A stretch of 64,000 nt of DNA from contig CAYOLO010000001.1 of the NCBI GenBank assembly GCA_964404855.1, forward strand, positions 222,894 through 286,893, written 5' to 3'. The notes under the pieces were generated by a model, which saw only the letters and a list, made by a program, of their open reading frames with translations, did no database searches and was not told the DNA's origin. The translations under genes were made by a program, and so were the position numbers. The stretch is from an uncultured Gammaproteobacteria bacterium. GTDB lineage: Bacteria; Patescibacteriota; Microgenomatia; CAYQLK01. Shown here piece after piece: positions 1 to 15,593 of this stretch (positions are counted from its first letter, which is position 1; each line of letters opens with the position of its first letter).

Positions 1-910
1 ATCAAGGTGCCTGAGATAGTATTTAAAAAGAACGTCTGACCAAGCAAGCTTATCTTTGAGATTTGAAGGAACGGGGGCCGATTGATATTTTTCGTAAGCA
101 GAAACAAAGTCCGGATTCGTTTGGGGGGATTTTAGGTTAATAATGTTTACTTGATTGGCTCTGTTATTTGATGTTGGATTTATAAATGTAAGCAGAATTG
201 GCAAACAAAAGATTAGTCCAAACAATAATGAAATTGATACAAATTTAATGTTTTTTATTAGTGATTTGAGATAGAGTACCGTAAAAACGATTAAGACTAT
301 TGGAACAATAATTCTGGTGTGGTAGTAGAAGTAGAAGGAGAGAGAAAAAAACAAACTAGAGAATAATAACTTGGATGGTTTTGTAAGACTAGCTAGTAGA
401 AAATATACTCCAAGTACATAAAGCGTAGTTGCGCTGTTGGCCTCGAAGGAGGCTCTTGAGAATTGTAAATGCCAAGGGGAGGTTGCGAGTAAAAAGGCAG
501 CAAATAGTGCTATGATTTTTGATCTTTTGGAGTGGTTTTTTTCTGTTAGTTTGGCAACTAGTAAGTAAATTGCATAAATAGCCAATATGCCCATTAATGC
601 GGAAGGTAGTCTAACTGAAAAATTATTAAGTCCAAAAATTAAGGTGAATGGAGCAGTTAAATAAATTTGGCCAGGAAGCTTGTATTCACCAAATGATTGA
701 AAACTTAGCGGTAAAAACTTACCCCATTCATCCCTTGCAGTTTGAGAAATCGAATATGCATTATATCCAATTGATGCTTCGTCCCAATATGGAGAAATTG
801 GATTACTGTTGATATTAAACAGTCTCAATATAGAGCCTAGAAAAATAATTGAAATTAATATTTTATGACGAATGAAAAACTTCTTTGGGTGTTTGATGTT
901 TGGCTGCACA
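1..910 (-). CDS. Polytopic membrane protein, 5' portion only, possibly a GT-C fold (ArnT/PMT-like) glycosyltransferase. No in-frame ATG; the likely GTG start is near 910 and the gene runs off the window start.
   Basis: The minus strand has an uninterrupted frame from about 910 down to 1, with a stop immediately upstream. The translation (…FIRHKILISIIFLGSILRLFNINSNPISPYWDEASIGYNAYSISQTARDEWGKFLPLSF…) is multi-TM with an N-terminal pattern resembling the ArnT/PMT family. The ORF track omits it for lack of an ATG. Confidence 0.35.
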
Positions 911-965
911 ATTATTTTTTTTACTTAGTTGATTATAAGACAGAATAAAATGGGTTTATAATTAA

Positions 966-1385
966 GTGATTATGATAAATATATTTAAACCTTCTCAAAA
1001 AGTTTTTGCTCACTGCGATGTTCCTTGCGGAATATATGACCCAAGGCCAGCTCAAATAGCTGCTGCAACTGTTTTAAAAATGGTAGAAAAAATTCTTGCT
1101 TTACCAAATGAAATGTCGCAGGCGGAGATGAATAGTTTTGTAAGAATGGTGGAGGCAAAAGAGGAGCATGCCAGAATATGTAAGCAAGAAATTTTGGTGC
1201 TTTGGACTGATTTTTTCAAACCAGAACACTTGGAAAAGTTTCCAGATTTGCACGAAAAGGTTTGGAATACTGCTAAGCTGGTTTCAGAAAACAAACAACA
1301 TGTTCATCTAGATGCTGCTCAGCGCCTAGTTAAATCTGTGGATGAGATTGCGAGTATTTTTGACCAAATTAAGATGGGTTCTTAG
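966..1385 (+). CDS. sodN: Nickel-containing superoxide dismutase precursor (Ni-SOD)
   Basis: A 15-aa propeptide is followed by the HCDVPCGIYDP Ni-hook motif. The C-terminal 'VLWTDFFKPEHLEKFPDLHEKV' matches the Streptomyces SodN core. The length of about 139 aa is typical. Confidence 0.9.
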   Translation: MIMINIFKPSQKVFAHCDVPCGIYDPRPAQIAAATVLKMVEKILALPNEMSQAEMNSFVRMVEAKEEHARICKQEILVLWTDFFKPEHLEKFPDLHEKVWNTAKLVSENKQHVHLDAAQRLVKSVDEIASIFDQIKMGS

Positions 1386-1403
1386 TTTTTTAGTATTTTA
1401 TTT

Positions 1404-1712
1404 ATGAGATTTGAGGTGTTTGGAGAAAGTATGTTGCCAACTTTTGTGGCAAATGATTATTTATTGGTATTTAAGTCAAGATCGGTAAAGTGTGGAGATT
1501 ATGTGGTTTTTTGTGATCCTAGAGACGGTGATCGAAGATTATTAAAGAAGGTAAACAGAGTAAGGCATGGTGAGATTTTCGTTGAGGGATTAAATAAAAA
1601 GCAGAGTACTGATTCACGGATATTTGGTTGGGTAAATAAAGATTTGATTGTTGGCAAGGTCTTTATGAGATATTATCCGCTTTTTGGTCGTGGTAAATTT
1701 TGGTTTTGGTAG
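1404..1712 (+). CDS. sodX: Ni-SOD maturation peptidase (signal peptidase I / S26 family, SodX-like)
   Basis: It carries the 'GESMLPTF' Ser-protease motif of the S26 family. It is small and lies immediately downstream of sodN, the conserved sodN-sodX arrangement. Confidence 0.8.
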   Translation: MRFEVFGESMLPTFVANDYLLVFKSRSVKCGDYVVFCDPRDGDRRLLKKVNRVRHGEIFVEGLNKKQSTDSRIFGWVNKDLIVGKVFMRYYPLFGRGKFWFW

Positions 1713-1730
1713 TGTAGAATTCATTTCGTT

Positions 1731-2414
1731 ATGGCACTTGGAATTTTTGATATTAAAACAATAATCGAATCAGTTGATCCTTCGTTAAGTAATGTCGTTG
1801 GAGTAGGGTTAGTTTCGCTGATTGTTTTTGCGGAATCGGGACTATTGGTTGGATTTTTCTTGCCTGGTGATTCAATGTTGATTTCGGTGGGAATTTTAGC
1901 TTCAAAAGGTTTGATAAATATATACTTTTTACTGTTTTTTGTTTTTTTATCGGCGGTTATTGGTGATAATGTTGGTTATTCGACTGGTAGGAGATTTGGG
2001 AAAAGATTATTTACTAGAAAGGAATCAAAATTTTTCAAACCAGAACATTTGATTAAGGCGCAGGAATTTTATGAAAAACATGGTGGTAAAACGATAATAT
2101 TGGCTAGATTTATACCATTTGTCAGAACCTTCGCGCCGGTGGTGGCAGGGATAGGTGATATGAACTATAAAACTTTTTTTCTTTATAATTTGACTGGTGG
2201 ATTTTTGTGGGCAGTTGGGGTTACTTTGTTGGGGTTTTTCTTAGGTAAAATACCAGGTATTGATAACTATCTCCTTGCAATTATTGGGATAATTATTTTT
2301 GTTTCAGTTGCTCCGGCTGTATGGCATATTTTTAAAGAGCCAGAGAATAGACAAACCTTAAGGAGGACTGCAGCTAGTTCTTACAGTAAAGTAAGACGCC
2401 GAAAAAATGTCTAA
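1731..2414 (+). CDS. DedA/SNARE-associated family membrane protein
   Basis: It has multiple TM helices and the DedA signature region 'GDNVGYSTGRRFGKRLF…ILARFIPFVRTF'. Confidence 0.8.
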   Translation: MALGIFDIKTIIESVDPSLSNVVGVGLVSLIVFAESGLLVGFFLPGDSMLISVGILASKGLINIYFLLFFVFLSAVIGDNVGYSTGRRFGKRLFTRKESKFFKPEHLIKAQEFYEKHGGKTIILARFIPFVRTFAPVVAGIGDMNYKTFFLYNLTGGFLWAVGVTLLGFFLGKIPGIDNYLLAIIGIIIFVSVAPAVWHIFKEPENRQTLRRTAASSYSKVRRRKNV

Positions 2415-4140
2415 ACATACAAACAACTTATTTGGTTTGGTAAAAAAAATTCAAAAATTTGTTTTGGATAACAAGGGGATTGTTCTCGTTTTTGCGCTTT
2501 TTTTGGTGCTTGCACTAGTTAATGCTGTTCATGAATCTTTCCCTGATGAGTACGATAATATTCTGGGGGGATATTATATAAACAAGGGGATGCTGCCCAA
2601 TATTGGGTTTTTTACTCATCATAATATTGGTGCATATTTTTTGGCGGCAATCAATGCGTTTTTTACTCAACAGTCGTTTGTTTGGTTTAGGTTGTTGTTC
2701 GCTTTTGAAATATGGGGAGCAATAATAGCTACCTATTTGTTATTTAGACGTGGATTTGGTGTAGAAAAAAGTAAATTTTATCTGTGGTTTGCGCTGTTTA
2801 TGCTCGTAGGATCGACATATTGGTGGGGGCAGATGTTTTTGTCGGAGACATTAATTTCGTATCTAATAATCCCTGTATATGGGTTGATTTTATTAAAATC
2901 TTTTTATAAGAAGATTTGGACACTTACCGATCTTGTTTTGGTGTCTATTCTGACATTTTTAAGTTTTTCTATTTCGTTAACTTACATTTATATATTTGCT
3001 TTGATTTACCCATTAGTTTTGGTGCTTTATGTATTGGGATTAAAGAACAGATTCGATATTAGAAAAATATTTATCGCGTTAGTTATTTTGGGAATGCCTT
3101 ATGTAATATTTGGAATTTATTTATTAGTTACTAATTCTTACGAAGAGTTTTATTTTCAGCAGTATTTTTATAACTTTAACTACTATATTTATAATTTCCC
3201 AGACGTAGCCGGCGTTCGATCCACGAATCCGATTAGATATGCGGTTTCTACTGCTTATCAGACTCTAAACGGGTTTTATGGATTGTTTATTCAAGTTAAA
3301 GATTTGAATTTGGAATACCCATTTAATGTTTCTTTGGTTTTGGGTAATTTGTTGGCTGTGGTTTATCTGATTGTTAGGAGAAGGTTTTGGATAGCTGGAA
3401 TGGTGGTGTTTGTAATTATCTTTTCAAACACAAGGAGTGAGCCATTAAATATTAAAGAAACGGATTTTCATGCGACGGTTTTTATAGCACTAACTTTATT
3501 TAATCTTGCTTGGGCAAGTTTTGAGATAGTTAAAAAATTGAACAAAAAAGTGTTTAATTATTCCCAAACGATATTGTTAACTGCGTTAATGATAATTGTT
3601 TGGATTTATGTGGTTTTTGCAATGTTATTACTGGCAGATAAATTTGGAGAAAAGGTTTATGCAAAATACATGGGGCAACAGCCATTGATTTATGACAGGC
3701 CTGAAGTCGCGCCAATCTTGAATAAGATTACTACAAAGGATGATTTTGTTTGGGTTGGTCCGTTTGCTTTTCACGAACTTTTGTATCTGAACGCAAAGAA
3801 TCCATCAAAGTACCATTGGTTTTTGCCGCAGAGTGAAGCCTTTGGAAGATTTAAAGAAGGAATAATTAATGATTTAACAATTAGAAGACCGAAGGTGATT
3901 GTTTTTGAAAAAGGGTATACAAACTTTGGTAAAAGAGCGGAAGAGTGGAATTATCCGATTACGGACTTTTTGTCAAAAAATTATTTTAGTTTTGAGCAGT
4001 TAAGCACTTTGGGTTATGTTTCAAAGGCTTCATCGGCTATGCATTTTGATTTTACTCAAACATATTATTTTGATAATAATCGTAGAGAAGAAATAATTAA
4101 CGATTTGGTTAGTACTGGTTTGATTGAGAAGATTAGGTAG
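2407..4140 (+). CDS. Large polytopic membrane protein (577 aa) of unknown function, possibly an envelope glycosyltransferase
   Basis: It has 10 or more predicted TM segments followed by a soluble C-terminal region. Its start overlaps the dedA stop (ATG…TAA overlap). Confidence 0.45.
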   Translation: MSKHTNNLFGLVKKIQKFVLDNKGIVLVFALFLVLALVNAVHESFPDEYDNILGGYYINKGMLPNIGFFTHHNIGAYFLAAINAFFTQQSFVWFRLLFAFEIWGAIIATYLLFRRGFGVEKSKFYLWFALFMLVGSTYWWGQMFLSETLISYLIIPVYGLILLKSFYKKIWTLTDLVLVSILTFLSFSISLTYIYIFALIYPLVLVLYVLGLKNRFDIRKIFIALVILGMPYVIFGIYLLVTNSYEEFYFQQYFYNFNYYIYNFPDVAGVRSTNPIRYAVSTAYQTLNGFYGLFIQVKDLNLEYPFNVSLVLGNLLAVVYLIVRRRFWIAGMVVFVIIFSNTRSEPLNIKETDFHATVFIALTLFNLAWASFEIVKKLNKKVFNYSQTILLTALMIIVWIYVVFAMLLLADKFGEKVYAKYMGQQPLIYDRPEVAPILNKITTKDDFVWVGPFAFHELLYLNAKNPSKYHWFLPQSEAFGRFKEGIINDLTIRRPKVIVFEKGYTNFGKRAEEWNYPITDFLSKNYFSFEQLSTLGYVSKASSAMHFDFTQTYYFDNNRREEIINDLVSTGLIEKIR

Positions 4141-4914
4141 TTGTATTTTATGCAGGTTATTTTTCAAGCTAGGGAGTATGTAATTAGAGGGTTAAGGCTT
4201 TGTGCAAAGGATCCTTTTGGGCTACTGGCTTTGGCTGGGCTTTTTGCATTGTTTGATGTTTCAAGTGTGGCTTTTTCTAACCAAAACAATATATGGGCAT
4301 CTTGGGTGGCCTTGGTATTGCCGTGGATTTCAATTGTCGGAGGAAATTTGGCGCTTATTTTTGCAGTTGAATCCCTTGCTAAAAATGAATTAGTGGTACC
4401 GGCTAAGATTTTGCCTCAGACGTTTAAATGGTTAAGACGGTATTTAGAAGTAAATGGTATTACCACAATAATTTTTTGGGGAATGTTTGTGCCACTAAAA
4501 ACCTTATTAGATTATTGGGCAACGAGAAACGGATATAGTGATATTCTTACTTGGATTATTATTTTGCCGTTTGCGGTTCTGGTGCATGTTCGGTTAGTTT
4601 TTGCGACCTATGCGGCTGTTGTAGATAATCAAAATGCAATTAAAGCAGTGGCAATAAGTTGGAGAGTGGCTCATAAAAGATGGGTACTTGTGACTTTAAG
4701 TTTTTTGTTTGCACTGGTTGCGGTTTCACCGTTTGCACTGCCCGCCTTGGTATTATCAATGTATTCGCCAAAAGAAATTCAAAATGGTATTAACTGGACA
4801 ATAATTCAGTTAATTAGGCCTGTCTTAATCGCAACTTTGCATGAATTATATGTAGATTATGGAATGAACGGAAAATTAAAAACCAAAAATGTTAATGGAA
4901 AAAAAGTTAAGTGA
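4141..4914 (+). CDS. Integral membrane protein, hypothetical
   Basis: It has hydrophobic helices throughout and is tightly packed between the neighbouring genes. Confidence 0.4.
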   Translation: MYFMQVIFQAREYVIRGLRLCAKDPFGLLALAGLFALFDVSSVAFSNQNNIWASWVALVLPWISIVGGNLALIFAVESLAKNELVVPAKILPQTFKWLRRYLEVNGITTIIFWGMFVPLKTLLDYWATRNGYSDILTWIIILPFAVLVHVRLVFATYAAVVDNQNAIKAVAISWRVAHKRWVLVTLSFLFALVAVSPFALPALVLSMYSPKEIQNGINWTIIQLIRPVLIATLHELYVDYGMNGKLKTKNVNGKKVK

Positions 4915-5974
4915 TAGACAGATTGAGCTGGATGTAATTAAGGCAGTTGCGATAATTGCTGTAGTGCTTGTTCACACTACAAGTCTTAGTTATTCGTATT
5001 TTCCAAGAAACGGAATTGGTTGGAGTAGTTTGTTGGTTATCGATCAGCTGACAAGATTTTGTGTACCTGTTTTTGTGGCGCTAAGCGGTTATGGGCTTGG
5101 AATAAAAAACATGGATATTGGCCGAGATTACAGGCAGTTTTTTAGAAGAAGAGTAGTTAAATTATTGCCATGGTATTTGTTTTGGTCGGGAATTATTTAT
5201 TTTTATATTAGATTAGGTGATGAGTGGAATCATGTGGAGCATTTTCCATTGTGGAAGATTATTTTTATGGGAAAAGCTGACTACCATTTGTACTTTGTGC
5301 CAATGATTGTGTCTTTATATTTAATATTTCCAATACTCGCTTTTTTAATTAAAAAGTTTGGATGGAGAATTATTTTATTTTTGGGTTTGCTGCAGGGTCT
5401 TTTGTTTTTTCTTACAAGCTTGGAGGCAGAAAAAATTATTAAATTGGGGTTTTCGTGGGGAGATCAGCAACAATATTTGTTTTTTGGGTCTTGGATATTT
5501 TATTTTGCTTTAGGAATTTACCTTAATTTTTTACCTGGTGTTATGTCGAAAAGAAATAATTTAATCAAGTTGGTTGCGGTTGTATCGTTGACTCTGGGTC
5601 TGGCCTTTATTTTGGTCGATACATTTAGATTGGTGGGTGAGGGTGCGGATATTATCGCGGCAACAAGGTTTACAAGAATTCCGGTATTGGTTTTTGCGAC
5701 TGGTTTTATATTATCGTCTTTGGTGTGGAGAAAGTTTTGGCTTGGGTTTCCTCGAATCTTTATTTGGATTGGGGAGAGGTCGTTTATTATTTATCTTTCT
5801 CATACATTAGTATTAAGAGAATTACTTGAACTGTTAAGACCCAGTAATTTGGTTGACTTTGTTTCATACTTTCTTTTGGCTTTTATGTTGTCGACAATTT
5901 TGGCCGAGGTGGCGTTTCAGATAGCGAGGTTTTTGTCGAAACAAAAGTTTCATAAATTATTAATTAGATTTTGA
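4889..5974 (+). CDS. Acyltransferase family 3 (OafA/OatA-like O-acyltransferase) membrane protein
   Basis: The N-terminal 'R…ELDVIKAVAIIAVVLVHT' motif and roughly 10 TM helices are typical of PF01757. Confidence 0.75.
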   Translation: MLMEKKLSDRQIELDVIKAVAIIAVVLVHTTSLSYSYFPRNGIGWSSLLVIDQLTRFCVPVFVALSGYGLGIKNMDIGRDYRQFFRRRVVKLLPWYLFWSGIIYFYIRLGDEWNHVEHFPLWKIIFMGKADYHLYFVPMIVSLYLIFPILAFLIKKFGWRIILFLGLLQGLLFFLTSLEAEKIIKLGFSWGDQQQYLFFGSWIFYFALGIYLNFLPGVMSKRNNLIKLVAVVSLTLGLAFILVDTFRLVGEGADIIAATRFTRIPVLVFATGFILSSLVWRKFWLGFPRIFIWIGERSFIIYLSHTLVLRELLELLRPSNLVDFVSYFLLAFMLSTILAEVAFQIARFLSKQKFHKLLIRF

Positions 5975-6039
5975 GTTATAGCCGTAAATTGTGCTAAAAT
6001 TCTTAGAATCGTTTTTGGGATACGGAATCAATTGTCTTT

Positions 6040-6650
6040 TCTTGACAATCCAAAACGTGTTTTTAGAGGAAAACACGAAAAGTCGAGGAGAGGTTTTTGG
6101 TTTGAGTTCCAACAACGAGCACATAACAATCGGAGAGGCACAGTTGACGAACATGTTGACGAGCACCGTGCATACCCTTGAGGAGTTGGCCGATATGGCT
6201 GATTCACCAAGGGCGGCGGATACCTATCGGGCATTCGCTAGTGCCGAGTGTCTCATGATGGTCGTAACCTCATCCAAGAATGTGGGCGAAGCCGCCGTCT
6301 GCGTTCCCCATTCCGGGCAGTCTGAAAGCCCCAGCGTGACTGTCGTGAAGCACCCCCGCTTCACCATCCCTGCGTCTGACTTGTTTCAGGTGATCTCGCC
6401 CGAAATGGCAAGCCGTCGCAGTCGCGAATCGCTGGCCATGAAGAGCACGCCGGTTAATCCGAAGTACTCGACGAACCATCAGGTCTTGCGGTTGCAACAG
6501 GAGAATGTTGCGAAGGTCGCAAGGCTTATGGCTGTTCTGACAGGGAAGCCGATCGAGGTCCGCTTCCAGGAAGCTGGTGGGCGCAACTTCCCTTACTTGG
6601 ACGAAGTGGTTCATCCTTAACCGGATTACGCGCCTTTAATTGGAACTGTG
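6040..6650 (+). other. GC-rich, ORF-poor island: a candidate large structured ncRNA or a foreign, pseudogenised fragment
   Basis: GC content rises sharply above both flanks. The only long frame (5991..6620) translates to a protein with no family resemblance and overlaps antisense ORFs rich in Arg, Pro and Gly. There are many local hairpins, for example a 7-bp stem at 6345-6364. A + strand intrinsic terminator follows. Confidence 0.25.
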
Positions 6651-6804
6651 AGGTATTTTTGGGCTTAGCACCCCTAGCTTCTTTAGTTTTGTTTGAGATG
6701 GAGAAATTTCATCACAGACAAACTTAGCGAAGCGTCTGTTTTTTTGCAGAGCTAGCCTCCTCACAATTACTTTTTAAGGCTTGTGGTTTGGTTGTTGTGT
6801 GAGT

Positions 6805-6851
6805 GGTGGGTGGTAGGATTAATTTCTTGCCCCCACCTCTTTTTTTGTTTT
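6805..6851 (+). terminator. Rho-independent terminator candidate
   Basis: The stem GGTGGG (6805-6810) pairs with CCCACC (6832-6837), followed by TCTTTTTTTGTTTT. It lies between the GC-rich island and the convergent rimK-like gene. Confidence 0.4.
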
Positions 6852-8190
6852 AGCTATGATTTGGTTTGGGAATTTTTGGAATGAATGGTTTGACAACGAA
6901 CCCTTGAATATCTCTGCGTCCAATAAGTAATGGATATTTTAAATGAGATCTGTCTGCAACTGAGGCATTTGAGGTAATAAGTTTGCCGGCGACTGAAAAT
7001 TTTAGACTAACATATTCTCTTTTCGATCTGCCGTGGGCAGATCTTACGCCTTTTATTTTGGTTATTAGGGTTGAGTGATATATTCCTAGGTTTTGAGCTA
7101 AATGTCTGTCGATTGAAGAAGATTTGGCTCCAGTATCGATGCGAGCTTTAATCTCAAGTCTTTTGCCAGTTGAACTGACGACTTTAACAACTTCGACTGC
7201 GTCTAAGATTGTACGATTTGGCTTGATTTTTTCTGACACAGATGAGGAAAAAATTGTTTTGGCTAGCGCAACACCTCTTTCGGTTGAGGTCACTTCCAGA
7301 TCCTCAACGCGTTTGAGTCGTCTAAGTAGTGGGGCTCGATTCGCGTTTTGAATAGAAAGTCCTGGCCTGGCGTTTATTTCGATAACGACGGGTCCTTTGT
7401 TTTCGTCGAGGATAATATCAACGCCAGCAAATCCAAGTTTGGAGGCAACTTGAGCTTCAACGGAAAGCCTGAGTATTTCTTCCCAGTGGGGAACTTTAAT
7501 TCCGTTAAGTTTGATTTTTGTGTCAGGAACATATTTGATTGGTTGGTCATAGCGAATAGCGTGGACTGTAACGCCTGTTGCGATATCTATACCGACGCCA
7601 ATTGCACCACCGTGGAGATTAGCTGTTCCGTTACTTTCTTCAGTAGGAAGCCTTAACATTGCCATTACTGGAACTTTGTTGAAAACTATAACGCGAATAT
7701 CGGGTGCTCCGCGCCAAGTATATTTTTTGAAAGTTTTGCTACGCCTAATTCTTTCTTCAATAAAGGCTGCATCTGGGACTTGGTTGAGGGAATAATTGCC
7801 ATCAAGTATGTCTTGAATATGTCTTTTGAGCCCAGCGCTGTCGATGTTGTTTTGATCAGTTGTTTCTCCTTTACCATTTTTGAATTTTCTAACAAGAAGA
7901 ATACCTTCTCCACCATAACCAGCGTTCGGTTTAACGACGAAGTCTTGTGGAAGACTGTCCCAGTCAAAATCATCAAGGTCTTTGAACCGATAAAAGGACG
8001 CGTAGAGTTTTGGGGTGGCGACGTTGTTTTTAATCAAAACTCGTTTGGTTAAGAGTTTTTCGTCGGCAAATCTGCGGGCGCGCATACGGTTGTAGCGTCC
8101 GATATAGAGAAGGTTCCTGGCGTTGATGCCTAGAACATGTTTACTCTTTACCATACTTGAGAACCTCTCTGAAGCGGAGATATTCGACAA
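6850..8190 (-). CDS. RimK-like ATP-grasp (alpha-L-glutamate ligase-related) protein fused to a C-terminal retropepsin-like aspartic peptidase domain
   Basis: The N-terminal two-thirds has the ATP-grasp ligase pattern (…FVVKPNAGYGGEGILL…IEINARPG…). The C-terminal roughly 130 aa contains 'ARIDTGAKSSSID', a retropepsin D[TS]G motif. This matches the RimK-associated peptidase family that is normally a separate neighbouring gene. Confidence 0.7.
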   Translation of the reverse strand: MSNISASERFSSMVKSKHVLGINARNLLYIGRYNRMRARRFADEKLLTKRVLIKNNVATPKLYASFYRFKDLDDFDWDSLPQDFVVKPNAGYGGEGILLVRKFKNGKGETTDQNNIDSAGLKRHIQDILDGNYSLNQVPDAAFIEERIRRSKTFKKYTWRGAPDIRVIVFNKVPVMAMLRLPTEESNGTANLHGGAIGVGIDIATGVTVHAIRYDQPIKYVPDTKIKLNGIKVPHWEEILRLSVEAQVASKLGFAGVDIILDENKGPVVIEINARPGLSIQNANRAPLLRRLKRVEDLEVTSTERGVALAKTIFSSSVSEKIKPNRTILDAVEVVKVVSSTGKRLEIKARIDTGAKSSSIDRHLAQNLGIYHSTLITKIKGVRSAHGRSKREYVSLKFSVAGKLITSNASVADRSHLKYPLLIGRRDIQGFVVKPFIPKIPKPNHS

Positions 8191-9058
8191 GTCTTAGTCC
8201 GGTCCATCTGCCGATAAGAATTATAAAGGCAATAATTGCGACGAAAGTTAGTTCGGGATTAATTAGCACGATTCTTTGTAAATAGCTCCACTGCATTATT
8301 AAAAACCCAATGACTGCGAGGACAAGTGTTTCAGCTGTTATCACGGCTGCTTGTCTAAGATTTTTATCTAATTGAATATTAACGAAGTTTTCTGTCAGGG
8401 TAATAAGAATCAAAATAGGGAAGATAGAAATCGTTTCAATCCTGACGATATCGAGCATTGATCCGAAAAATAGAGTAATAAACATTGCCATTGAAACAAA
8501 AAATAAAATCAGTGCTGTTCTGGGTAAATAGAGGATTTTGAGATAACGAAGAATGTATCTAGATAGAGTTGTCGTTAAAACAATGACAATGAATAAAGCT
8601 AACCCTACTTTTAATCCTGTAGCAACAAAGGCGACTGCTGTGACGGTTGGAGTGTAGATACCAAAACTTTTAAAACCAATGACTTGTCTTGAAAAGGCAG
8701 CAATTGCGGCAATAATTGGCAGCATCAAGACTAAAACAATTGTATTAGTTGGAACTCCATCGTTGACCATTGATCTGATTCCATAGGAAATAAAATTATT
8801 CCACGATAGTGAGGTGATTGGATTTTGGTCAAGTAGAGTTTTGAGCTGTGATTCGGACACCTCAGGATTAGTTAAATCGGAAGACGGCTTGATTGTTGAA
8901 CTGATTGATGCCTCTTGAGCTTGAGTAGTAGCTTCGATTGTGGGCTGGGTTGCGAGAGGGGTTGTAGTTGGATTTTTGGCTTGCGCGGAAATTTGTGGTG
9001 CGTAAATTAAGCCAGTCAACACGATAGAAAGAATAATTAGGGTTTGCAAGAATCTCAT
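8141..9058 (-). CDS. Multi-pass membrane protein (signal peptide plus about 7 TM), partner of the RimK-like ligase
   Basis: It has an N-terminal signal (MRFLQTLIILSIVLTGLIYAPQISA), a Thr/Pro-rich linker and then 6-7 TM helices. It is co-directional with the rimK-like gene and overlaps it by about 50 nt, suggesting an operon. Confidence 0.5.
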   Translation of the reverse strand: MRFLQTLIILSIVLTGLIYAPQISAQAKNPTTTPLATQPTIEATTQAQEASISSTIKPSSDLTNPEVSESQLKTLLDQNPITSLSWNNFISYGIRSMVNDGVPTNTIVLVLMLPIIAAIAAFSRQVIGFKSFGIYTPTVTAVAFVATGLKVGLALFIVIVLTTTLSRYILRYLKILYLPRTALILFFVSMAMFITLFFGSMLDIVRIETISIFPILILITLTENFVNIQLDKNLRQAAVITAETLVLAVIGFLIMQWSYLQRIVLINPELTFVAIIAFIILIGRWTGLRLVEYLRFREVLKYGKE

Positions 9059-9202
9059 TTTAGTTTAAAATTTTATTTCACTAAATTACTTTCGCTAAGA
9101 GCTAGTTAAGGTAACTTTAAAGCGCCCACATTATAATACTAAATATAGCTGTGACAAGTGTGTAGAAAATGTGCGGTTTGTAATTAAATAAAACAAATAA
9201 AT

Positions 9203-10120
9203 ATGAATGTTTCAGATGTTGTGATAATTGGTTCGGGGCCTGCAGGCTTAACGGCTGCTATTTATACGAGTAGAGCACTACTTTCAACGGTTGTAGTTTC
9301 TGGGGAAACTCCTGGTGGACAACTAATGATAACTAGTGAAGTTGAAAATTTTCCAGGATTTGATGAGGGAATAATGGGTCCGGAGTTGATGGATAAAATA
9401 AAAAAACAAGCTGAAAAGTTTGGAACTGAGTTCGTGGCGGGAAATGTAATAAGGGTGGATTTAAAAGGAGAATTAAAAAAACTGTGGGTGGGGGAAGTAG
9501 AAATTCAGGCAAAATCAGTAATAATTGCGACTGGATCTAATGCAAAATGGTTAGGTCTTCCTTCTGAGGAAAAATATTGGGGTAAGGGGGTTTCGGCGTG
9601 TGCAACTTGTGATGGGTTCTTTTTTAGAAACAAAGAGATAGCAGTTGTGGGTGGTGGAGATTCAGCCATGGAAGAAGCGACATTTTTAACTAAGTTTGCT
9701 AGTAAGGTGACAATTATTCACAGAAGAGATGAGTTTAAGGCATCAAAAATTATGCTTGAGAAAGCGAGGAATAATCCTAAAATTGAATTTTTAACTAATA
9801 AGTCAGTGTCGGAAGTTATAGGTGGAGAAATGTTGACAGGGGTAAAATTAGTCGACACAAATACAAATGAAGAAAGCGAGTTAAAAGTTGAAGGTTTATT
9901 TGTAGCCATTGGGCACGCTCCTAATACTGAAATTTTTAAAGGTCAGCTAGAAATAAATGAGAAAGGTTATTTGGTTGTGGTTGATTATGTGAAGAGTTCC
10001 ACAGAAGGAGTGTTTATAGCTGGAGATGTGTCTGATTACCGATACAGGCAGGCAATAACAGCATCTGGTGCAGGGTGTATGGCCGCACTTGAGGCTGGGA
10101 AGTTTTTGACTGGAGAATAG
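9203..10120 (+). CDS. trxB: Thioredoxin-disulfide reductase
   Basis: It has the GSGPAGLTAA FAD-binding fold, the CATCDG redox-active motif and a GGGDSAMEEA NADPH-binding fold, with the expected length. Confidence 0.9.
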   Translation: MNVSDVVIIGSGPAGLTAAIYTSRALLSTVVVSGETPGGQLMITSEVENFPGFDEGIMGPELMDKIKKQAEKFGTEFVAGNVIRVDLKGELKKLWVGEVEIQAKSVIIATGSNAKWLGLPSEEKYWGKGVSACATCDGFFFRNKEIAVVGGGDSAMEEATFLTKFASKVTIIHRRDEFKASKIMLEKARNNPKIEFLTNKSVSEVIGGEMLTGVKLVDTNTNEESELKVEGLFVAIGHAPNTEIFKGQLEINEKGYLVVVDYVKSSTEGVFIAGDVSDYRYRQAITASGAGCMAALEAGKFLTGE

Positions 10121-10124
10121 AGAT

Positions 10125-10703
10125 ATGGCAAAACAGATTACTTTGGATGTTGAGACAAAGAATATTTTTCAGGAGGTTGGGAATGAAACCAAGAAATTAG
10201 GCATTTCTTATGTTGGCTTGCACGATTCGGAAACTAATGAATATTTTGGATATTTTGAAAAAGATTTGGGGAAAATGTGGCCACTACTTGAATCTGCTGA
10301 TTTGTTGATTGGATACAATATTAAGAGTTTTGATTATGAGGTACTTGCGCCCTATTACCGCGGTGACCTCAAAAAATTTCCGACTATTGATTTGTTAGAG
10401 ATTGTTAAAGATATATTAGGTTTTAGGTTAAAGCTAGATAATTTGGCTAAGGCAACATTGAATAAGGGAAAAATCGGAGATGGGTTGGATGCGGTTAGAT
10501 ATTTCCGTGAGGGGAAGATGGATAAATTGGCAGAGTATTGCCTCGAAGATGTAAGAATTACAAGGGAAATTTTTGATTATGCAATGATGAATGGTAGGTT
10601 AAAATATCCTGACCTGGGTGGTGCGACTAAAGAATTTGTTGTTGATTTGGAAAAGTATTTACCAACATCAACGAATGATACTCAAATGAGTTTGGCGCTA
10701 TAA
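10125..10703 (+). CDS. DnaQ-like (DEDDy) 3'-5' exonuclease / RNase H-like superfamily protein
   Basis: Exo I is 'LDVETKN', Exo II is 'YNIKSFDYEVL' and Exo III is 'YCLEDVRITREIF'. Confidence 0.55.
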   Translation: MAKQITLDVETKNIFQEVGNETKKLGISYVGLHDSETNEYFGYFEKDLGKMWPLLESADLLIGYNIKSFDYEVLAPYYRGDLKKFPTIDLLEIVKDILGFRLKLDNLAKATLNKGKIGDGLDAVRYFREGKMDKLAEYCLEDVRITREIFDYAMMNGRLKYPDLGGATKEFVVDLEKYLPTSTNDTQMSLAL

Positions 10704-10721
10704 AAAGTTATAATTAATTGT

Positions 10722-11087
10722 ATGCAAGCGCAATCAAAAACTAAAAAATCAGAAAAATTTAAGGTCGATATATCAGATTTTTTGCTAAATACCGAGGATG
10801 ACGATTTGATGTCGCGGGCACTTGTTGCTCCAGATTTTGGAAGATTAGGAGAGAGAAGGTTGATGGCATTGGAGGATTTTTTGGTGGGTGAAGTTGGAGA
10901 AGATGGAGTGTTTGTTATCTCAGTGGGATTAAGAAAAGGCGGCAGGGTGTATTTGAAGTATCAGACGGCGGGAAATTTGTTTTTGAAACCAAAGGCGTTT
11001 ATTAAAAATGACCCCAAGGAGCTTGCACCTGAAGAAGTACTAGGTATGGCTACAATAGCTTGGGAAGATTTGGGAAGTTTTGTTTAA
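10722..11087 (+). CDS. Hypothetical protein
   Basis: The ORF has an in-frame ATG and typical local codon usage. No motif was recognised. Confidence 0.35.
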   Translation: MQAQSKTKKSEKFKVDISDFLLNTEDDDLMSRALVAPDFGRLGERRLMALEDFLVGEVGEDGVFVISVGLRKGGRVYLKYQTAGNLFLKPKAFIKNDPKELAPEEVLGMATIAWEDLGSFV

Positions 11088-11371
11088 TTTTTTTTTGACA
11101 AGTCAGCCTAATTGTTTAAAATAGCTTGATATGAATCATTGGATGCTTGTATCCAGTCCAGAAAATTTTGAAATTTCTCGAGGTTTAGGTTTTGGATTGG
11201 CTGGGATGCAGTTGCAATATAGAAAAAAAGCCATTGATGTCCGAATAGGGGATGAGGTTAATAGCAATGTTTTGATTGTGAAAAACTTGGCCGCAAAAAG
11301 TTATTGCGGTTGTGGAAGGAGTTTTTCGATTTAGTTATTTTTCGTATTGAAAAAAACATAAAAAAAGAATT

Positions 11372-12121
11372 ATGAAAGGTTTAATAATTAAAAATCTGTC
11401 TGTATCTGTTGCAGGAAAAAGAGTCGTTGATGGGCTTAACCTAGAGGTTAAACAAGGTGAAGTGTTAGCCTTTATGGGGCCTAATGGTTCTGGAAAGTCA
11501 TCACTGGCTATGGCTGTCGCTGGCTCGCCAAAATATATCGTTGAAAGTGGTCAAGTGTTACTAAATGGTATTGATTTGTTGAAGCTTAAACCTGATGAGA
11601 GAGCAAAAAAAGGAGTATTCGTTAGTTTTCAACACCCTGTTGAGGTGGTTGGGGTAACTGTGGCGTCTTTTTTGAGAATGGCTTATTTAGCCAAAAATAA
11701 GGGTAAAAAAATGGGCTTCGGTGAATTTGGCAAACTATTAAGCGAAAAAATGGAGTTAGTGGGAATAGACAGTAAATTTGCCTCGCGAGAACTTAATGTA
11801 GGGTTTTCTGGTGGAGAAAAAAAGAAACTTGAAGTATTGCAGTTATTAGTTCTTGAGCCTGAATTTGTGATTTTGGATGAATTGGATTCGGGATTAGATA
11901 TAGATTCTGTCGCTTTTTTGGCAAAAGCTGTTTCTGAGATGGTAAAAACGAGAAAAATTGGTGTGATTGTAATTACGCATTACGAAAGAATTTTGAAGTT
12001 TTTGAAGCCAGATAAGGTTGGGGTGTTTGTTGATTCTAAGCTTCGCACAGTTGGTGGCCGAGAAATTGTTAAAAAATTAGAAAAAGAGGGATACGTAAAT
12101 TTTAGAGGAGCAGGAGTTTAA
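11372..12121 (+). CDS. sufC: Fe-S cluster assembly ATPase SufC
   Basis: It has Walker A 'GPNGSGKSS' and the ABC signature 'LSGGEKKKLEVLQL', is about 250 aa and directly precedes sufB. Confidence 0.9.
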   Translation: MKGLIIKNLSVSVAGKRVVDGLNLEVKQGEVLAFMGPNGSGKSSLAMAVAGSPKYIVESGQVLLNGIDLLKLKPDERAKKGVFVSFQHPVEVVGVTVASFLRMAYLAKNKGKKMGFGEFGKLLSEKMELVGIDSKFASRELNVGFSGGEKKKLEVLQLLVLEPEFVILDELDSGLDIDSVAFLAKAVSEMVKTRKIGVIVITHYERILKFLKPDKVGVFVDSKLRTVGGREIVKKLEKEGYVNFRGAGV

Positions 12122-12122
12122 G

Positions 12123-13517
12123 ATGCAAAGTGTTGTTGGAATTGACCAGTCTGAAGTTTCAGCAAACAAGGAAAGGTTTGTTGTTAGGCCAAGTAAGGGT
12201 ATTAGCCGTCAAATAGTTGAGCTTATCTCGAAAGAAAAAAATGAGCCTCTCTGGATGCGCGAGAAGAGATTGGCAGCTTTTGAGATTTTTTTAAAAAAAC
12301 CAATGCCTACTTGGGGGGCGGATTTGTCTGGTTTGGACTTTGACGAAATTACTTTTTATCTCAAAGCTGATTATGGTAAATACGAAAGTTGGAAGGATGT
12401 CCCAAAGGACGTTAAAACAACATTTGAAAAATTAGGAATTCCCCAAGCTGAAAGAAAATTTTTGGCAGGGGTAGTTGGCCAATATGAGTCAGAAGGGTTT
12501 TATCAGAGTTTGATGGAAAAGTATTCTAAGCAGGGGGTGATTTTTTGCGATACAGATACGGCAATACAAAAGTACCCTGAAATATTAAAGGAATATTTTA
12601 TGACAAGGTGTGTGTCGATAGCCGATCACAAGTTTGCATCACTACACGGCGCTGTGTGGAGTGGTGGAAGTTTTGTTTATGTGCCTGCAGGAGTCAAAGT
12701 TGATTTGCCGCTTCAGACTTATTTTAGGATGAATGCAAAAAATTATGGGCAGTTTGAGCACACGTTAATTGTGGCCGAAGAAGGTAGTGATGTTCACTAT
12801 ATTGAGGGTTGTACGGCGCCAAAATATTCTTCGACATCGATGCATAGTGCGGTGGTTGAGATTTTTGTGAAGAAAAATGCGCATGTTAGATATACAACGG
12901 TTCAGAATTGGTCTACAGATGTTTATAACCTCAACACGAAAAGAGCAATCGTGGAAGAGGGCGGTTTTATTGAATGGGTTGGTGGTTCGATGGGTTCAGG
13001 GGTAACGATGCTGTATCCGGCCTCAATGCTAATTGGTAGAGGGGCTAGAGCTGATCATTTGAACATAGCTGTTGGTGGTCCAAATCAGTATAAAGATACG
13101 GGGGCTAAGGTCTTTCATGGAGCTTCAGACACCACATCGACTGTTGTATCTAAGTCCATAGTCTTTGGAGGAGGAGAAACGGTTTATAGGGGCTTACTTA
13201 GGGTTGCTAAGGGGGCTATAAACTCTAAGGCGCACGTACAGTGTGATGCATTAATGCTTGATGATATTTCTAAGTCAGATACAGTTCCAACGATGGAGGT
13301 TTTTGAAGATCAGGTTTCGGTTGGTCATGAAGCGACAGTGGGAAGAATTTCTGAAGAAATGCTTTTTTACTTACAGTCTCGGGGATTAACAGAAGCTGAG
13401 GCGATGGCAATGGTCGTGCGAGGATTCGTTGAACCTGTGGTTAAAAAATTACCCTTGGAATATGCTGTGGAGTTGAATCGTTTGATTGAGCTTGAGATGG
13501 AGGGATCAATTGGCTAA
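12123..13517 (+). CDS. sufB: Fe-S cluster assembly protein SufB
   Basis: It is 464 aa with a SufB-typical C-terminal beta-helix region (…YTTVQNWSTDVYNLNTKRA…). Confidence 0.9.
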   Translation: MQSVVGIDQSEVSANKERFVVRPSKGISRQIVELISKEKNEPLWMREKRLAAFEIFLKKPMPTWGADLSGLDFDEITFYLKADYGKYESWKDVPKDVKTTFEKLGIPQAERKFLAGVVGQYESEGFYQSLMEKYSKQGVIFCDTDTAIQKYPEILKEYFMTRCVSIADHKFASLHGAVWSGGSFVYVPAGVKVDLPLQTYFRMNAKNYGQFEHTLIVAEEGSDVHYIEGCTAPKYSSTSMHSAVVEIFVKKNAHVRYTTVQNWSTDVYNLNTKRAIVEEGGFIEWVGGSMGSGVTMLYPASMLIGRGARADHLNIAVGGPNQYKDTGAKVFHGASDTTSTVVSKSIVFGGGETVYRGLLRVAKGAINSKAHVQCDALMLDDISKSDTVPTMEVFEDQVSVGHEATVGRISEEMLFYLQSRGLTEAEAMAMVVRGFVEPVVKKLPLEYAVELNRLIELEMEGSIG

Positions 13518-14011
13518 TGAATCATAATTTGGTACTGGGTGATAATGAAGAAAAAAACATAAGAGAACAGATATTGCCTGGTAAGATAAATGTAGAAATC
13601 GAAATTAAAGGTAATGATAGTAGTTTTGATTATTATGGTGTTTTGGATGGCAAGGATGAGGAAGAATTTGATATTTCTACAGTTGTAACGCATGTTGGGC
13701 TTAAGGCTAAGAGTAATGTTTGGATTAAGGGAGTATTAAGAAATAATTCAAAAGTTGAGGTAAGCGGTTTGATTAAGGTACTAAATGGTGCAAAAGGCAG
13801 TGATGGTAGATTTAAGGCTGAGTTTTTGGTTTTTGATAATGCTGTAGCTAAGCCAATTCCTGGTTTGGAGATTGAAGAAAATGATGTTGCAGCTGGGCAT
13901 AGTGCGTGGGTTACTAAAGTAAGTGAAGATATGATTTTTTATCTAATGACAAAAGGCTTAAGTAGAAAAAAGTCTGAAAAGGCAATTATTGATGGGTTTT
14001 TGAAAATATAA
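13517..14011 (+). CDS. sufD: SufD-like protein (short form)
   Basis: Its start overlaps the sufB stop as TAATG. The C-terminal 'AGHSAWVTKVSEDMIFYLMTKGLS' resembles the SufB/D C-terminal motif. It is unusually short at 164 aa. Confidence 0.6.
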   Translation: MNHNLVLGDNEEKNIREQILPGKINVEIEIKGNDSSFDYYGVLDGKDEEEFDISTVVTHVGLKAKSNVWIKGVLRNNSKVEVSGLIKVLNGAKGSDGRFKAEFLVFDNAVAKPIPGLEIEENDVAAGHSAWVTKVSEDMIFYLMTKGLSRKKSEKAIIDGFLKI

Positions 14012-14013
14012 AA

Positions 14014-15231
14014 ATGAACAGAAAAGATTTTCCAATATTTGACAAAAAAGTTAATGGGAAAAGATTCGCTTACTTGGATAATGCTGCGACAACACATAAA
14101 CCTCAAGTGGTTATAGATAGAACTAATAAGTTTTATGGTCATGAATATGGAACAATTAATCGCGGGGTATATAAATACTCAGAAATGGCAACAGAAGCTT
14201 TTGAGACAGCTAGAAAGACAGTGGCTAATTTTCTTAATTGTCAAAAACCAAAAGAGATAATTTTTACTTCTGGAACAACGGAAAGTATTAATTTGGTGGC
14301 CTATTCTTGGGGACTAACTAATTTGAAAAAAGATGATGAGATAGTTCTTTCAGTGTCCGAGCATCATGCAAATATTGTGCCTTGGCAGATAATTGCAAAG
14401 ATTACTGGAGCGAAACTAGTGTTTGTAAATATTGACGATTTTGGACTAATTGATGTAGTAGATTTGAGGCAAAAAATAACCAAGAAAACAGCTTTAGTGG
14501 GACTGGTTCATGCTTCAAACGTATTAGGCGGGGTGAATGATGTAAAAACTTTAGTTAAAGAGGTTAGGAAAATAAACAGTAAAACGAAGATTCTAATTGA
14601 TTCCGCTCAAACAGTTGGAAAAATGAGAGTGAGTGTTCAGTCGATTGGAGCTGATTTTTTGGTATTTAGCGGACATAAAACATTAGGACCAACAGGAGTA
14701 GGAGTGCTTTGGATAAGGGAAGAGATTGCTCAAAACATGAATCCGTTTATGGGCGGAGGCTCGATGATTAAAGATGTCACAGAAAATGGCTCAATTTGGA
14801 ATGATATTCCTTACAGATTTGAGGCTGGTACGCCGAATATTGCTGGAGTATTGGGGTTAGCTACTGCAATTAATTATTTGGAACGTGTTGGATTAGATAA
14901 AATTGAAGAGGAAGATCAGAAACTGTCGGAATATATGATGGCGAAGTTTGAAGAGAAAAAGGTTGATTTTTTGGGACCAAATATTGCTAGTAACAGGGTG
15001 GGAATTTTTACATTTAATATAAAAGGTATTCATCCTCACGATTTGGCAAGTGTCTTGGATGCCCATGGTGTTGCGGTTAGATCTGGTTTGCATTGCGCGC
15101 ACCCTTTAATGAAAAGATTGAAATTGGATTCGGGTGTTAGAGCAAGTTTGTATTTTTATAACGACGAACAAGATATTGATCAATTATTTGACGGAATTGA
15201 AAAAGCTAAAAAAGTCTTAAAAATAACTTAA
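14014..15231 (+). CDS. sufS: Cysteine desulfurase SufS (class II aminotransferase V)
   Basis: It has the PLP-binding region 'SGHKTLGPTGVGVLW' and the active-site Cys region 'RSGLHCAHPLM'. Confidence 0.9.
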   Translation: MNRKDFPIFDKKVNGKRFAYLDNAATTHKPQVVIDRTNKFYGHEYGTINRGVYKYSEMATEAFETARKTVANFLNCQKPKEIIFTSGTTESINLVAYSWGLTNLKKDDEIVLSVSEHHANIVPWQIIAKITGAKLVFVNIDDFGLIDVVDLRQKITKKTALVGLVHASNVLGGVNDVKTLVKEVRKINSKTKILIDSAQTVGKMRVSVQSIGADFLVFSGHKTLGPTGVGVLWIREEIAQNMNPFMGGGSMIKDVTENGSIWNDIPYRFEAGTPNIAGVLGLATAINYLERVGLDKIEEEDQKLSEYMMAKFEEKKVDFLGPNIASNRVGIFTFNIKGIHPHDLASVLDAHGVAVRSGLHCAHPLMKRLKLDSGVRASLYFYNDEQDIDQLFDGIEKAKKVLKIT

Positions 15232-15233
15232 AA

Positions 15234-15593
15234 ATGGATAATTTATATCGAGACGAATTGTTAGATTTGGTAAGAGAGAGTGCAGTACAAAGAAAAGTTC
15301 GTAAGCCGGATATTATTGTAGAAGATTTTAATAGTCTTTGTGGTGATAAGTTGTTAATTAGTATCAAACTTGATGGCGACGAAATTATGCAATACGGATT
15401 TGAAGGGAGTGGGTGTTTGATTTCTCAAGCTTCGGCATACTTATTAAAAGAGAAGGTAATAGGGATGAAACTATCTGATTTGAAAAATATTAGTGACGAT
15501 GAGGTTTTGGCAGAACTAGGTATTCCAAAACTTACGCCATCGAGAATGAAGTGTGCTTTGATGGCTGTAAAAACTTTAAGAGAAAAGATATAA
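15234..15593 (+). CDS. sufU: SUF system Fe-S scaffold, NifU/IscU-like (SufU)
   Basis: It has conserved Cys ligands in 'NSLCGDKL…GSGCLISQASA…' and is about 120 aa. Confidence 0.8.
   Translation: MDNLYRDELLDLVRESAVQRKVRKPDIIVEDFNSLCGDKLLISIKLDGDEIMQYGFEGSGCLISQASAYLLKEKVIGMKLSDLKNISDDEVLAELGIPKLTPSRMKCALMAVKTLREKI

Follow-up and report, generated by a model that had tools for sequence, protein, structure and literature searches.

The ATP-grasp ligase RimK makes poly-α-glutamate, and the retropepsin-like endopeptidases RimB and RloA cleave stretches of roughly eight glutamates or more (PMC11957791; PMC12239564). RimB, which binds RimK, shortens poly-glutamate tails and also promotes the synthesis of poly-glutamate (PMC11957791). 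The rloABC operon of Pseudomonas aeruginosa was characterised genetically and structurally in 2025, and Rlo in Pseudomonas was linked to hypo-osmotic survival, biofilm formation and β-lactam tolerance (Lormand et al., mBio, PMC12239564). Deletion of rloB, which encodes a seven-transmembrane (7TM) protein, or of rloC, which encodes the ligase, suppressed the hypo-osmotic lethality caused by loss of the three periplasmic RloA proteases. Thus, the ligase and the 7TM protein appear to make what the protease removes. RloB matches were 96% proteobacterial and rlo was proposed to have arisen from rim in the Gammaproteobacteria (PMC12239564). Here we describe a related cassette in a 64,000-nucleotide stretch of metagenomic DNA (contig CAYOLO010000001.1, positions 222,894–286,893; hereafter the window). 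At positions 6850–9058 on the minus strand it carries two overlapping genes, an upstream gene for a 7TM protein and a downstream gene for an ATP-grasp ligase fused to a retropepsin-like protease. A first-pass annotation of this DNA had compared the pair to a three-gene proteobacterial module of unknown function; that module is rloABC, so the description no longer holds.

The window cassette resembles rloABC in bringing together, in one operon, an RloC-type ATP-grasp domain (PF14397/TIGR02291), an RloB-type 7TM domain (PF14402) and an RloA/RimB-type retropepsin domain (PF05618), the last with a DTGA motif and the two arginines needed for poly-glutamate cleavage. It differs in that the protease forms the C-terminus of a ligase predicted to be cytoplasmic, whereas RloA is separate, secreted and disulfide-stapled, and in that the 7TM protein has a short disordered linker instead of the inactive transglutaminase domain of RloB. 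Moreover, there are two genes rather than three, the host belongs to the Patescibacteria and the scores fall short of the equivalog cut-offs of NCBIfam. The other close precedent is the RimK-RimB pair and its fused form, RimBK of Desulfotalea psychrophila, in which a glutamate ligase of the ATP-grasp type, located in the cytoplasm, either pairs with or is joined to a poly-glutamate-trimming retropepsin-like endopeptidase (PMC11957791; PMC7343187); as in the window, this protease lacks a signal peptide and a conserved Cys pair. The protease is N-terminal in RimBK but C-terminal in the window fusion (PMC11957791). In addition, RimBK contains a RimK-family ligase and has no membrane partner, whereas the window has an RloC-type ligase with an obligatory 7TM partner, and no link to ribosomal protein S6 is evident for the window system. 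What is new here is the combination of an RloC-type ligase bearing a C-terminal cytoplasmic protease with a transglutaminase-free 7TM protein; the three domain families, rloABC and RimBK were known. We read the cassette, with moderate confidence and by analogy to these precedents, as a membrane-docked ligase that would build acidic, poly-glutamate-type peptides and would carry its own trimming protease, a minimal Rlo-like machine of two genes.

The RloC-type ligase domain occupies residues 1–300 of the fusion protein (7255..8154, minus strand). Residue numbers refer to a 434-residue form of this protein unless 446-residue numbering is stated, and statements of invariance in it are based on an alignment of 24 diverse fusion homologues, A1. 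The assignment draws on PF14397, TIGR02291, fold matches and A1. PF14397 (ATPgrasp_ST) matches residues 25–296 in 446-residue numbering with an E-value of 4e-68 and 230 bits against a cut-off of 31.4. The RimK family model TIGR00768 gives 55 bits, below its threshold of 143.4. In the AlphaFold2 (AF2) model of the fusion protein, which has a predicted local distance difference test score (pLDDT) of 83, the ATP-grasp domain is present. Its top solved fold matches are ArgX/LysX, RimK and cyanophycin synthetase, all of which attach amino acids to peptide or protein carboxylates. The predicted Mg/ATP site consists of Lys75, with a Gly-rich loop, and Asp246, Glu259 and Asn261, all invariant in A1; the latter three align with the Mg-binding residues Asp248, Glu260 and Asn262 of RimK in the 24-homologue profile. 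A flexible linker, residues 301–315 (IFSSSVSEKIKPNRT; 7210..7254, minus strand), with pLDDT below 50 at residues 305–313, connects the ligase to the protease.

The retropepsin-like aspartic peptidase domain spans residues 316–425 (6880..7209, minus strand) and is identified by PF05618, PDB matches, its predicted fold and A1. PF05618 (Zn_protease/RimB-like) scores 35.1 bits at the fusion C-terminus against a cut-off of 27. The stretch ARIDTGAKSSSID lies at residues 337–349, with the DTG codons at window positions 7129–7137, and Asp340-Thr-Gly-Ala, Arg379, Arg402 and Gly412-Arg-Arg-Asp415 are invariant. A GR[DN] motif in the C-terminal helix is characteristic of retropepsins. In the AF2 model the domain consists of strands within residues 320–411 and a helix at 413–416, and a Foldseek search with it found a phage acid protease (target TM-score 0.78, E-value 1e-9) as well as retroviral and caulimoviral proteases. 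The first-pass annotation had proposed a retropepsin with a D-T/S-G motif in the C-terminal region, and both the D-T-G-A motif and the resemblance of the fold to phage and retroviral aspartic proteases agree with this. From sequence, the ligase and protease active sites both look intact.

The C-terminal 125 residues also match the sequences of the RloA-type PDB chains 9g58, 9g59 and 2pma, and the family profile in addition matches ApRick. In the 9g58/9g59 alignments, which compare sequence and not structure, Arg338, Arg379 and Arg402 correspond to Lys46, Arg114 and Arg137 of P. aeruginosa RloA. These RloA residues bind poly-glutamate and are required by mutagenesis for its cleavage (PMC12239564). 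The protease domain carries a net charge of +16, compared with a mean of +10.7 over 120 homologues. The NCBIfam models RloA1–3 give only 19–42 bits on the fusion protein against cut-offs of 210–280. There is no cysteine in the whole fusion protein, so that the Cys pair of the periplasmic RloA orthologues (PMC12239564) has no counterpart, and sequence inspection revealed neither a signal peptide nor a hydrophobic segment. For these reasons we predict that the fusion protein, including its protease, is cytoplasmic. Retropepsins with a single catalytic Asp would act as homodimers, and tandem-duplicated proteases in the relatives P0256 and P0255 are consistent with such a need for two copies.

The 7TM gene (8141..9058, minus strand) encodes a 305-residue RloB-like membrane protein. 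PF14402 (7TM_transglut) matches residues 105–299 with 110.5 bits (cut-off 25; E-value 1e-31), while the RloB model NF052267 (NCBIfam) is matched only at profile positions 296–507, with 80 bits against a cut-off of 900. Pfam and NCBIfam profile searches detected no transglutaminase domain in the 305-residue protein. The AF2 model (pLDDT 76) consists of an anchor helix, a disordered stretch, two short helices, seven membrane helices and a C-terminal helix; we found no informative solved relative of the 7TM fold. An N-terminal signal peptide or anchor is formed by residues 1–21 (MRFLQTLIILSIVLTGLIYAP; 8996..9058, minus strand), a hydrophobic segment modelled as a helix at residues 2–19. It is followed by an extracytoplasmic N-terminal region (8750..8992, minus strand) with a disordered linker at residues 23–61, which is low-complexity sequence rich in T, S, A, P and Q with pLDDT below 50, and a conserved juxtamembrane helical segment at residues 62–103. 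This region is the slot filled by the inactive transglutaminase in RloB, by a PKD domain in other Patescibacteria and by a retropepsin in some relatives. The 7TM core, residues 104–285 (8204..8749, minus strand), is defined by the AF2 helices (104–127, 135–147, 149–173, 178–201, 212–231, 234–256 and 268–285) and by an alignment of 7TM proteins, A2, on which the invariant columns given here are based.

Invariant polar residues of the 7TM protein are Arg124, Arg180, Glu223, Gln229 and Thr244, and Glu269 is nearly invariant. The invariant stretches R124...G128..FG133, YLPR180, E223-N-F..Q229 and G287-L-R..E292...F296 place the majority of the invariant residues on the predicted cytoplasmic face. 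Basic residues are distributed as expected for an N-out, C-in topology, which is also what we predict from the sequence and the AF2 model together. The protein ends in a cytoplasmic, amphipathic basic helix with the motif GLRLxEYxRFR (residues 286–305; 8144..8203, minus strand), delimited by A2 and the partner proteins; Gly287, Leu288, Arg289, Glu292 and Phe296 are invariant, and the motif occurs in about 80 partner proteins. We propose, from this conservation, that the helix may be the docking site for the ligase. The cytoplasmic tail was also considered as a target of glutamylation and rejected, as its last residue is variable among the roughly 80 partners (K 23, S 12, Q 12, E 4); the window 7TM protein itself ends in Glu.

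The domains are recognised at family level and not by the narrower definitions of the known systems. The window cassette has neither the signal peptide and Cys pair of RloA nor the transglutaminase domain of RloB, and its ligase falls below the RimK threshold, but all three underlying domain families are represented above their cut-offs. These Pfam families were reportedly defined in the 2009 amidoligase paper of Iyer et al. Both the ligase fused in one chain to a retropepsin-like peptidase and the overlapping upstream gene for a signal peptide plus 7TM protein free of transglutaminase had been called in the first-pass annotation. The former is borne out by PF14397 and PF05618 in one open reading frame (ORF), and the latter by PF14402, the AF2 model and the partial RloB match. 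The domain search, neighbourhood comparison and structure prediction that it had suggested point the same way, with PF14397, PF05618 and PF14402 matched, the 7TM gene linked to the fusion in 82 of 83 loci (see below), and ATP-grasp and retropepsin folds predicted.

The ORF as called mechanically runs from 8190 to 6850 on the minus strand and gives 446 residues, the length stated in the first-pass annotation, counted from a TTG at 8190. The ORF itself is correct, but the protein is probably shorter. We favour the ATG at 8154 as the start, because a 99%-identical database protein (P0001) has 434 residues and because a Shine-Dalgarno-like GAGAGG lies upstream, 9 nt 5' of the ATG; the gene would then cover 6850..8154 (minus strand; stop codon, 6850–6852, included) and encode 434 residues. 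With this start the two genes overlap by 14 nt (ATGGTAAAGAGTAA), within which the stop codon of the 7TM gene falls, compared with 50 nt for the TTG start. An overlap of 14 nt is typical of translational coupling. The cassette lies on the minus strand and its neighbours are almost all on the plus strand, and hence the pair looks like its own transcription unit. A candidate promoter, TTGTCA-16 nt-TATAAT, is located at 9130..9157 (minus strand), about 72 nt 5' of the 7TM start codon; it matches 11 of 12 positions of a σ70-like consensus and is the top-scoring site of the region in a consensus scan, the assignment being a consensus match only.

The fusion is the standard form of the protein in Patescibacteria and is not particular to the window. 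All 120 best homologues, drawn from independent JGI, ENA, NCBI and Logan assemblies, are 425–460 residues long and align over 93–97% of the query, and D[TS]G[AS] is present in the C-terminal domain of every one. Counted as one genome per species, at least 576 species-level genomes encode relatives of the fusion, the best 80 of which include Woesebacteria, Levybacteria, Moranbacteria, Saccharibacteria, Dojkabacteria/WS6, Kerfeldbacteria, Beckwithbacteria and Andersenbacteria. Of 83 loci with a recovered fusion ORF, 82 have a gene matching PF14402 as its immediate upstream neighbour in the same orientation, and the exception sits at a contig end. From the homologues, the motif, the distribution and the linkage we conclude that the fusion is genuine, ancient and the normal form in the phylum. 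An artefact, in which separate ligase and protease genes were joined by a frameshift or a chimeric assembly, had been raised as a possibility with the original call. One locus, L013, does divide the gene into ORFs of 236 and 189 residues and is the exception. However, the reading frame is continuous in the window, full-length fusions are found in 120 of 120 homologues, and five near-identical contigs from different samples agree. The independent assemblies led us to reject this origin, to which we assign a practically negligible probability. The compact variant suggested in the first-pass annotation is real, its fusion is shared by at least 576 species-level genomes, and most relatives have a larger operon.

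The host is a small, uncultured, groundwater-type member of the Patescibacteria, Candidatus Curtissbacteria, under which name near-identical proteins are deposited; its genome is low in GC, at about 35%. Among the matches listed, all informatively titled genomes are Patescibacteria. Some records are titled Gammaproteobacteria, Bdellovibrionales or DPANN archaea, and we judged such titles unreliable because of the synteny of these loci with Patescibacteria-titled ones and the 42–50% identity of their proteins to the query. The species-representative genome (CAYQLK010000020.1), for example, is titled "uncultured Gammaproteobacteria bacterium", yet its proteins are Curtissbacteria-like. The taxonomic labels of many metagenome-assembled genomes are unreliable. 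Names of the fusion proteins in databases include "hypothetical protein" and "ATP-dependent zinc protease" (e.g., MBP6979791.1), the latter a misnomer inherited from the old name of PF05618. We found no description of the cassette in Patescibacteria in the literature searched. The organism of a transposon sequencing (Tn-seq) study in Saccharibacteria lacks a PF14402 protein; it has just RimK and RimB, neither of them essential.

The 82-of-83 linkage bears on a second explanation, that the fusion is a cytoplasmic regulator of the RimK/RimB type which adds glutamates to, or removes them from, ribosomal protein S6 or another soluble protein, with the 7TM gene an unrelated neighbour. Its protease would be cytoplasmic like RimB, a RimB-RimK hybrid exists (PMC11957791) and RimK is among the top structural matches of the ligase. 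The profile scores speak against such a regulator, as the RimK model reaches 55 bits (cut-off 143) and the RloC-type models 230–287 bits, and so do the apparent translational coupling of the 7TM gene, its near-constant presence and the fusion of the 7TM domain to the other two domains in relatives. There is also no credible acidic-tail protein encoded in the window to serve as a substrate. A search of the window for acidic tails or runs yielded as its only candidate a doubtful 74-residue ORF at 17457–17681 (minus strand) ending in KKEDEEE, which runs antisense to another ORF, matches no family and is unlikely to be a gene. We consider a cytoplasmic regulator highly unlikely.

The ways in which the three domains are joined in other proteins emerged from a search with the protease domain only against 1.84 billion cluster representatives. 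It gave 647 matches at E ≤1e-3, the best 150 of which were classified with our own hidden Markov models, and the architectures were confirmed by Pfam and sequence inspection. Twenty-eight of the 150 have the window arrangement of ligase then protease. The protease precedes a 7TM domain in 14, with a signal peptide or anchor detected ahead of it in 12, and one further protein (P0256) has a signal peptide or anchor, two tandem proteases and then a 7TM domain. A single chain, P0310, contains protease, 7TM domain and ATP-grasp together, and one protein is RimBK-like. The others are stand-alone proteases with an N-terminal hydrophobic segment, likely secreted (17), tandem proteases or split matches without a partner domain (10), and proteases alone without such a segment, many of them short and possibly fragments (78). 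Retropepsin-7TM fusions are represented by P0286, P0296, P0346 and P0256, the last with tandem retropepsins that give a pepsin-like pseudo-dimer, and by the loci L088:2008–3981 and L089:99–2062. In L089 the protease-7TM gene overlaps an unfused 283-residue ATPgrasp_ST gene by 4 nt, an arrangement like that of the overlapping pair in the window. In the 657-residue P0310, which is ordered retropepsin-7TM-ATP-grasp, the ligase follows directly after the cytoplasmic C-terminal helix of the 7TM domain.

As in the window, the three domains of these retropepsin-7TM and triple fusions (P0286, P0296, P0346, P0256 and P0310) behave as one set. Because they are fused in several different pairwise and triple combinations, we take them to be a functional unit. 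The arrangement of P0310 supports docking of the window ligase at the conserved cytoplasmic face of its 7TM protein. The retropepsin-7TM proteins differ from the window system in that their protease is on the 7TM N-terminus and, in most cases (12 of 14 with a detected signal or anchor), is thereby placed outside the cell, on the opposite face of the membrane. The protease is thus intracellular in the window type, as it is in RimB and RimBK, and extracellular in RloA and in the protease-7TM fusions, the ligase and 7TM partners being the same. Read most simply, these architectures would mean that its substrate occurs on both faces and that the product of the ligase is carried through the membrane, either by the 7TM protein or next to it. 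The suppression seen in Pseudomonas on deletion of rloB or rloC (PMC12239564) is in line with this.

The mechanism that we propose for the window cassette would work as follows. Two fusion chains would pair through their retropepsin domains, each contributing one catalytic Asp (Asp340), and the pair would dock on the cytoplasmic face of the 7TM protein; the docking is suggested by the all-in-one protein P0310. Using ATP, the ligase would then attach acidic residues, most probably α-linked L-glutamate, either to free chains or at the C-terminal end of an acceptor. Glutamate is our best guess by analogy with RimK/RimB and RloA, and it is suggested by these precedents, by the conserved poly-glutamate-binding arginines and by the strongly basic protease domain. 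Chains that are long enough would be cut by the endopeptidase, with its strongly basic groove, which would limit their length or release short oligomers. Finally, the 7TM protein may pass the product to the outside or couple the ligase to the state of the envelope. Export is hinted at by the outer-face position of the protease in relatives.

The partners of the fusion vary in size and content. The 7TM proteins of relatives are either bare (about 215–230 residues), equipped with a short N-terminal extension like that of the window (about 290–335 residues), or extended by an extracellular PKD domain (about 510–550 residues), and no transglutaminase domain was seen in the Patescibacteria 7TM partners checked. 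The PKD-bearing partners (L049:4395–5987, L057:4377–5948, L065:4359–6020, L066:4455–6017, L077:316–1926 and L082:1072–2706) come from loci of Saccharibacteria, Kerfeldbacteria and Andersenbacteria types. Operon content was compared over 79 distinct loci. In 26 of them a class A penicillin-binding protein gene lies within a block yebC-ruvC-7TM-fusion-(ligases)-class A penicillin-binding protein, and some loci contain a gene for a glycosyltransferase (GT4), a methyltransferase or a MATCAP-type carboxypeptidase. In L066 (6001–8403) an 800-residue protein consists of ATP-grasp and retropepsin regions with a MATCAP domain (tyrosine-carboxypeptidase family) fused behind, and in L030 (9992–11374) a separate MATCAP gene is found in the operon; thus, a ligase is combined there with two kinds of peptidase. 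The MATCAP domain, fused to or encoded beside a homologous fusion, recalls tubulin tyrosine ligase with MATCAP, and LysX/ArgX with LysW, in which an ATP-grasp enzyme extends an acidic protein C-terminus and a peptidase removes the addition. The resemblance goes no further than analogy and a similar fold; the window encodes no MATCAP, and neither a carrier protein nor a tubulin-like target is present.

The penicillin-binding protein genes suggest a third explanation, in which the acceptor of the amino acids added by the ATP-grasp domain is a lipid-linked, peptidoglycan or glycopolymer intermediate, which the 7TM protein holds or flips and whose peptide decoration the protease edits or removes. 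The Pfam family of the ligase is named "sugar-transfer associated", some loci encode GT4 glycosyltransferases or methyltransferases, and mscL adjoins the cassette in two close relatives. In Pseudomonas, the cell-shape, β-lactam and hypo-osmotic phenotypes of rlo mutants were tentatively tied to peptidoglycan by the authors (PMC12239564). The penicillin-binding protein gene, however, comes with yebC and ruvC in a block and may simply reflect lineage synteny; beside the cassette, the window lacks genes for a penicillin-binding protein, a glycosyltransferase and MscL. Moreover, the protease retains the poly-glutamate-binding arginines and the closest structural relatives of the ligase use peptide carboxylates, not sugars. 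We regard modification of an envelope polymer as unlikely, although it deserves more weight than a cytoplasmic regulator.

The mscL genes themselves (L087:6315–6647 and L086:6139–6471, minus strand in locus coordinates) are convergent with and directly downstream of the fusion gene. The osmotic phenotype of rlo mutants makes this adjacency suggestive, yet it looks like local synteny. A functional link to MscL was set aside because mscL is confined to the close relatives L086 and L087 and is absent from the window and the other loci.

Several observations weigh against the reading of the window cassette as a poly-glutamate machine with its own trimming protease. RloC itself had not yet been characterised biochemically (PMC12239564). 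TIGR02291, the alpha-L-glutamate-ligase-like model of NCBIfam, scores 287.1 bits over 293 residues, below its cut-off of 314.2, so that the ligase is a divergent subfamily and not a clear RloC orthologue; by its profile scores it belongs to the broader RloC/PF14397 family. P0310, on which the docking argument draws, is known from a single 4-kb contig. Finally, the operon continues in 52 of the 79 loci with between one and three additional ATP-grasp genes of RimK type directly downstream (e.g., L010:7323–9094, L015:7293–9928 and L022:7293–10028), 7 loci have a different ATP-grasp gene and 16, including the window type, have none. The product of the multi-ligase loci may be more complex than poly-glutamate, and the single-ligase form of the window may be a reduced version. 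A tblastn search found no further ligase or MATCAP gene in the 64-kb window.

These multi-ligase operons, which in many relatives comprise as many as four ATP-grasp genes and a methyltransferase gene, are what might be expected if the cassette made a small, defined secreted peptide such as a signal, a siderophore-like compound or an antimicrobial, with the protease as maturation enzyme and the 7TM protein as dedicated exporter. The extracellular PKD or protease domains on the 7TM proteins of relatives would fit this as well. The window, however, has a single ligase and no further tailoring genes, and the cassette is near-universal across very different reduced-genome Patescibacteria, which fits a housekeeping role in the envelope or in osmotic balance better. 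A secreted peptide thus seems to us distinctly improbable.

A wider synthesis of the data is doubtful but can be put forward tentatively. The 7TM protein and RloC-type ligase might together be a new ATP-driven, ribosome-free machine that makes and exports a polyanionic peptide, poly-α-glutamate or similar, with the retropepsin as a chain-length ruler that can be placed on either face of the membrane. The product might be an anionic envelope polymer or an osmoprotective polymer in Patescibacteria, and the two-gene form might be the ancestral core of proteobacterial rlo, rather than rlo having arisen from rim in Gammaproteobacteria. The spread of the 7TM-ligase-protease core in Patescibacteria falls outside the rlo-from-rim account of PMC12239564.

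Other features of the window lie around the cassette. Between the fusion gene and an acyltransferase gene, positions 6075–6650 have 47–64% GC in this genome of about 35% GC. The segment contains a plus-strand ORF (5991/6182..6620; about 146–209 residues) without a Pfam match, at the position that mscL occupies in L086 and L087. Compared with relatives at 86% DNA identity, its mismatches fall 39 times in third codon positions versus 18 and 13 in the others, with no gaps, and the ORF therefore looks like a real protein-coding gene. It was possibly acquired horizontally. A structured RNA in this spacer was considered and rejected, since no Rfam match was found even at E ≤1 and the substitution pattern is protein-coding. 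At 11087–11372 an EVE-domain gene seems truncated to a 67-residue ORF (11131..11334); the relatives L001 and L087 have an EVE gene of 142–149 residues plus a gene of about 100 residues between the same flanking genes, which suggests a deletion of about 550 nt in the window strain. Over positions 1–16000 the plus-strand GC skew is very strong, between +0.25 and +0.41, and the plus strand carries nearly all genes; over the cassette, on the minus strand, the skew drops to 0.06–0.14. An unusual disparity in strand composition has been reported for a Microgenomates genome (PMC7143001). No Pfam match at E ≤0.01 was obtained for a 2038-residue ORF at 51639–57755 (plus strand) or for the membrane-protein-like ORFs at 2407–4140 and 4141–4914 (plus strand) upstream of the cassette.

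The cassette is real, well conserved and informative for the Rlo question, and it is not a new category of system. The conserved core of Rlo consists of the 7TM domain, the ligase and the protease; the transglutaminase domain can be dispensed with. The system extends beyond Proteobacteria and is common in Patescibacteria, which thereby gain a conserved envelope-associated module. A system of two proteins without cysteine may lend itself more readily to reconstitution in vitro. Because the protease occurs on either membrane face next to the same partners, it can be argued, and tested, that the product of the ligase crosses the membrane.

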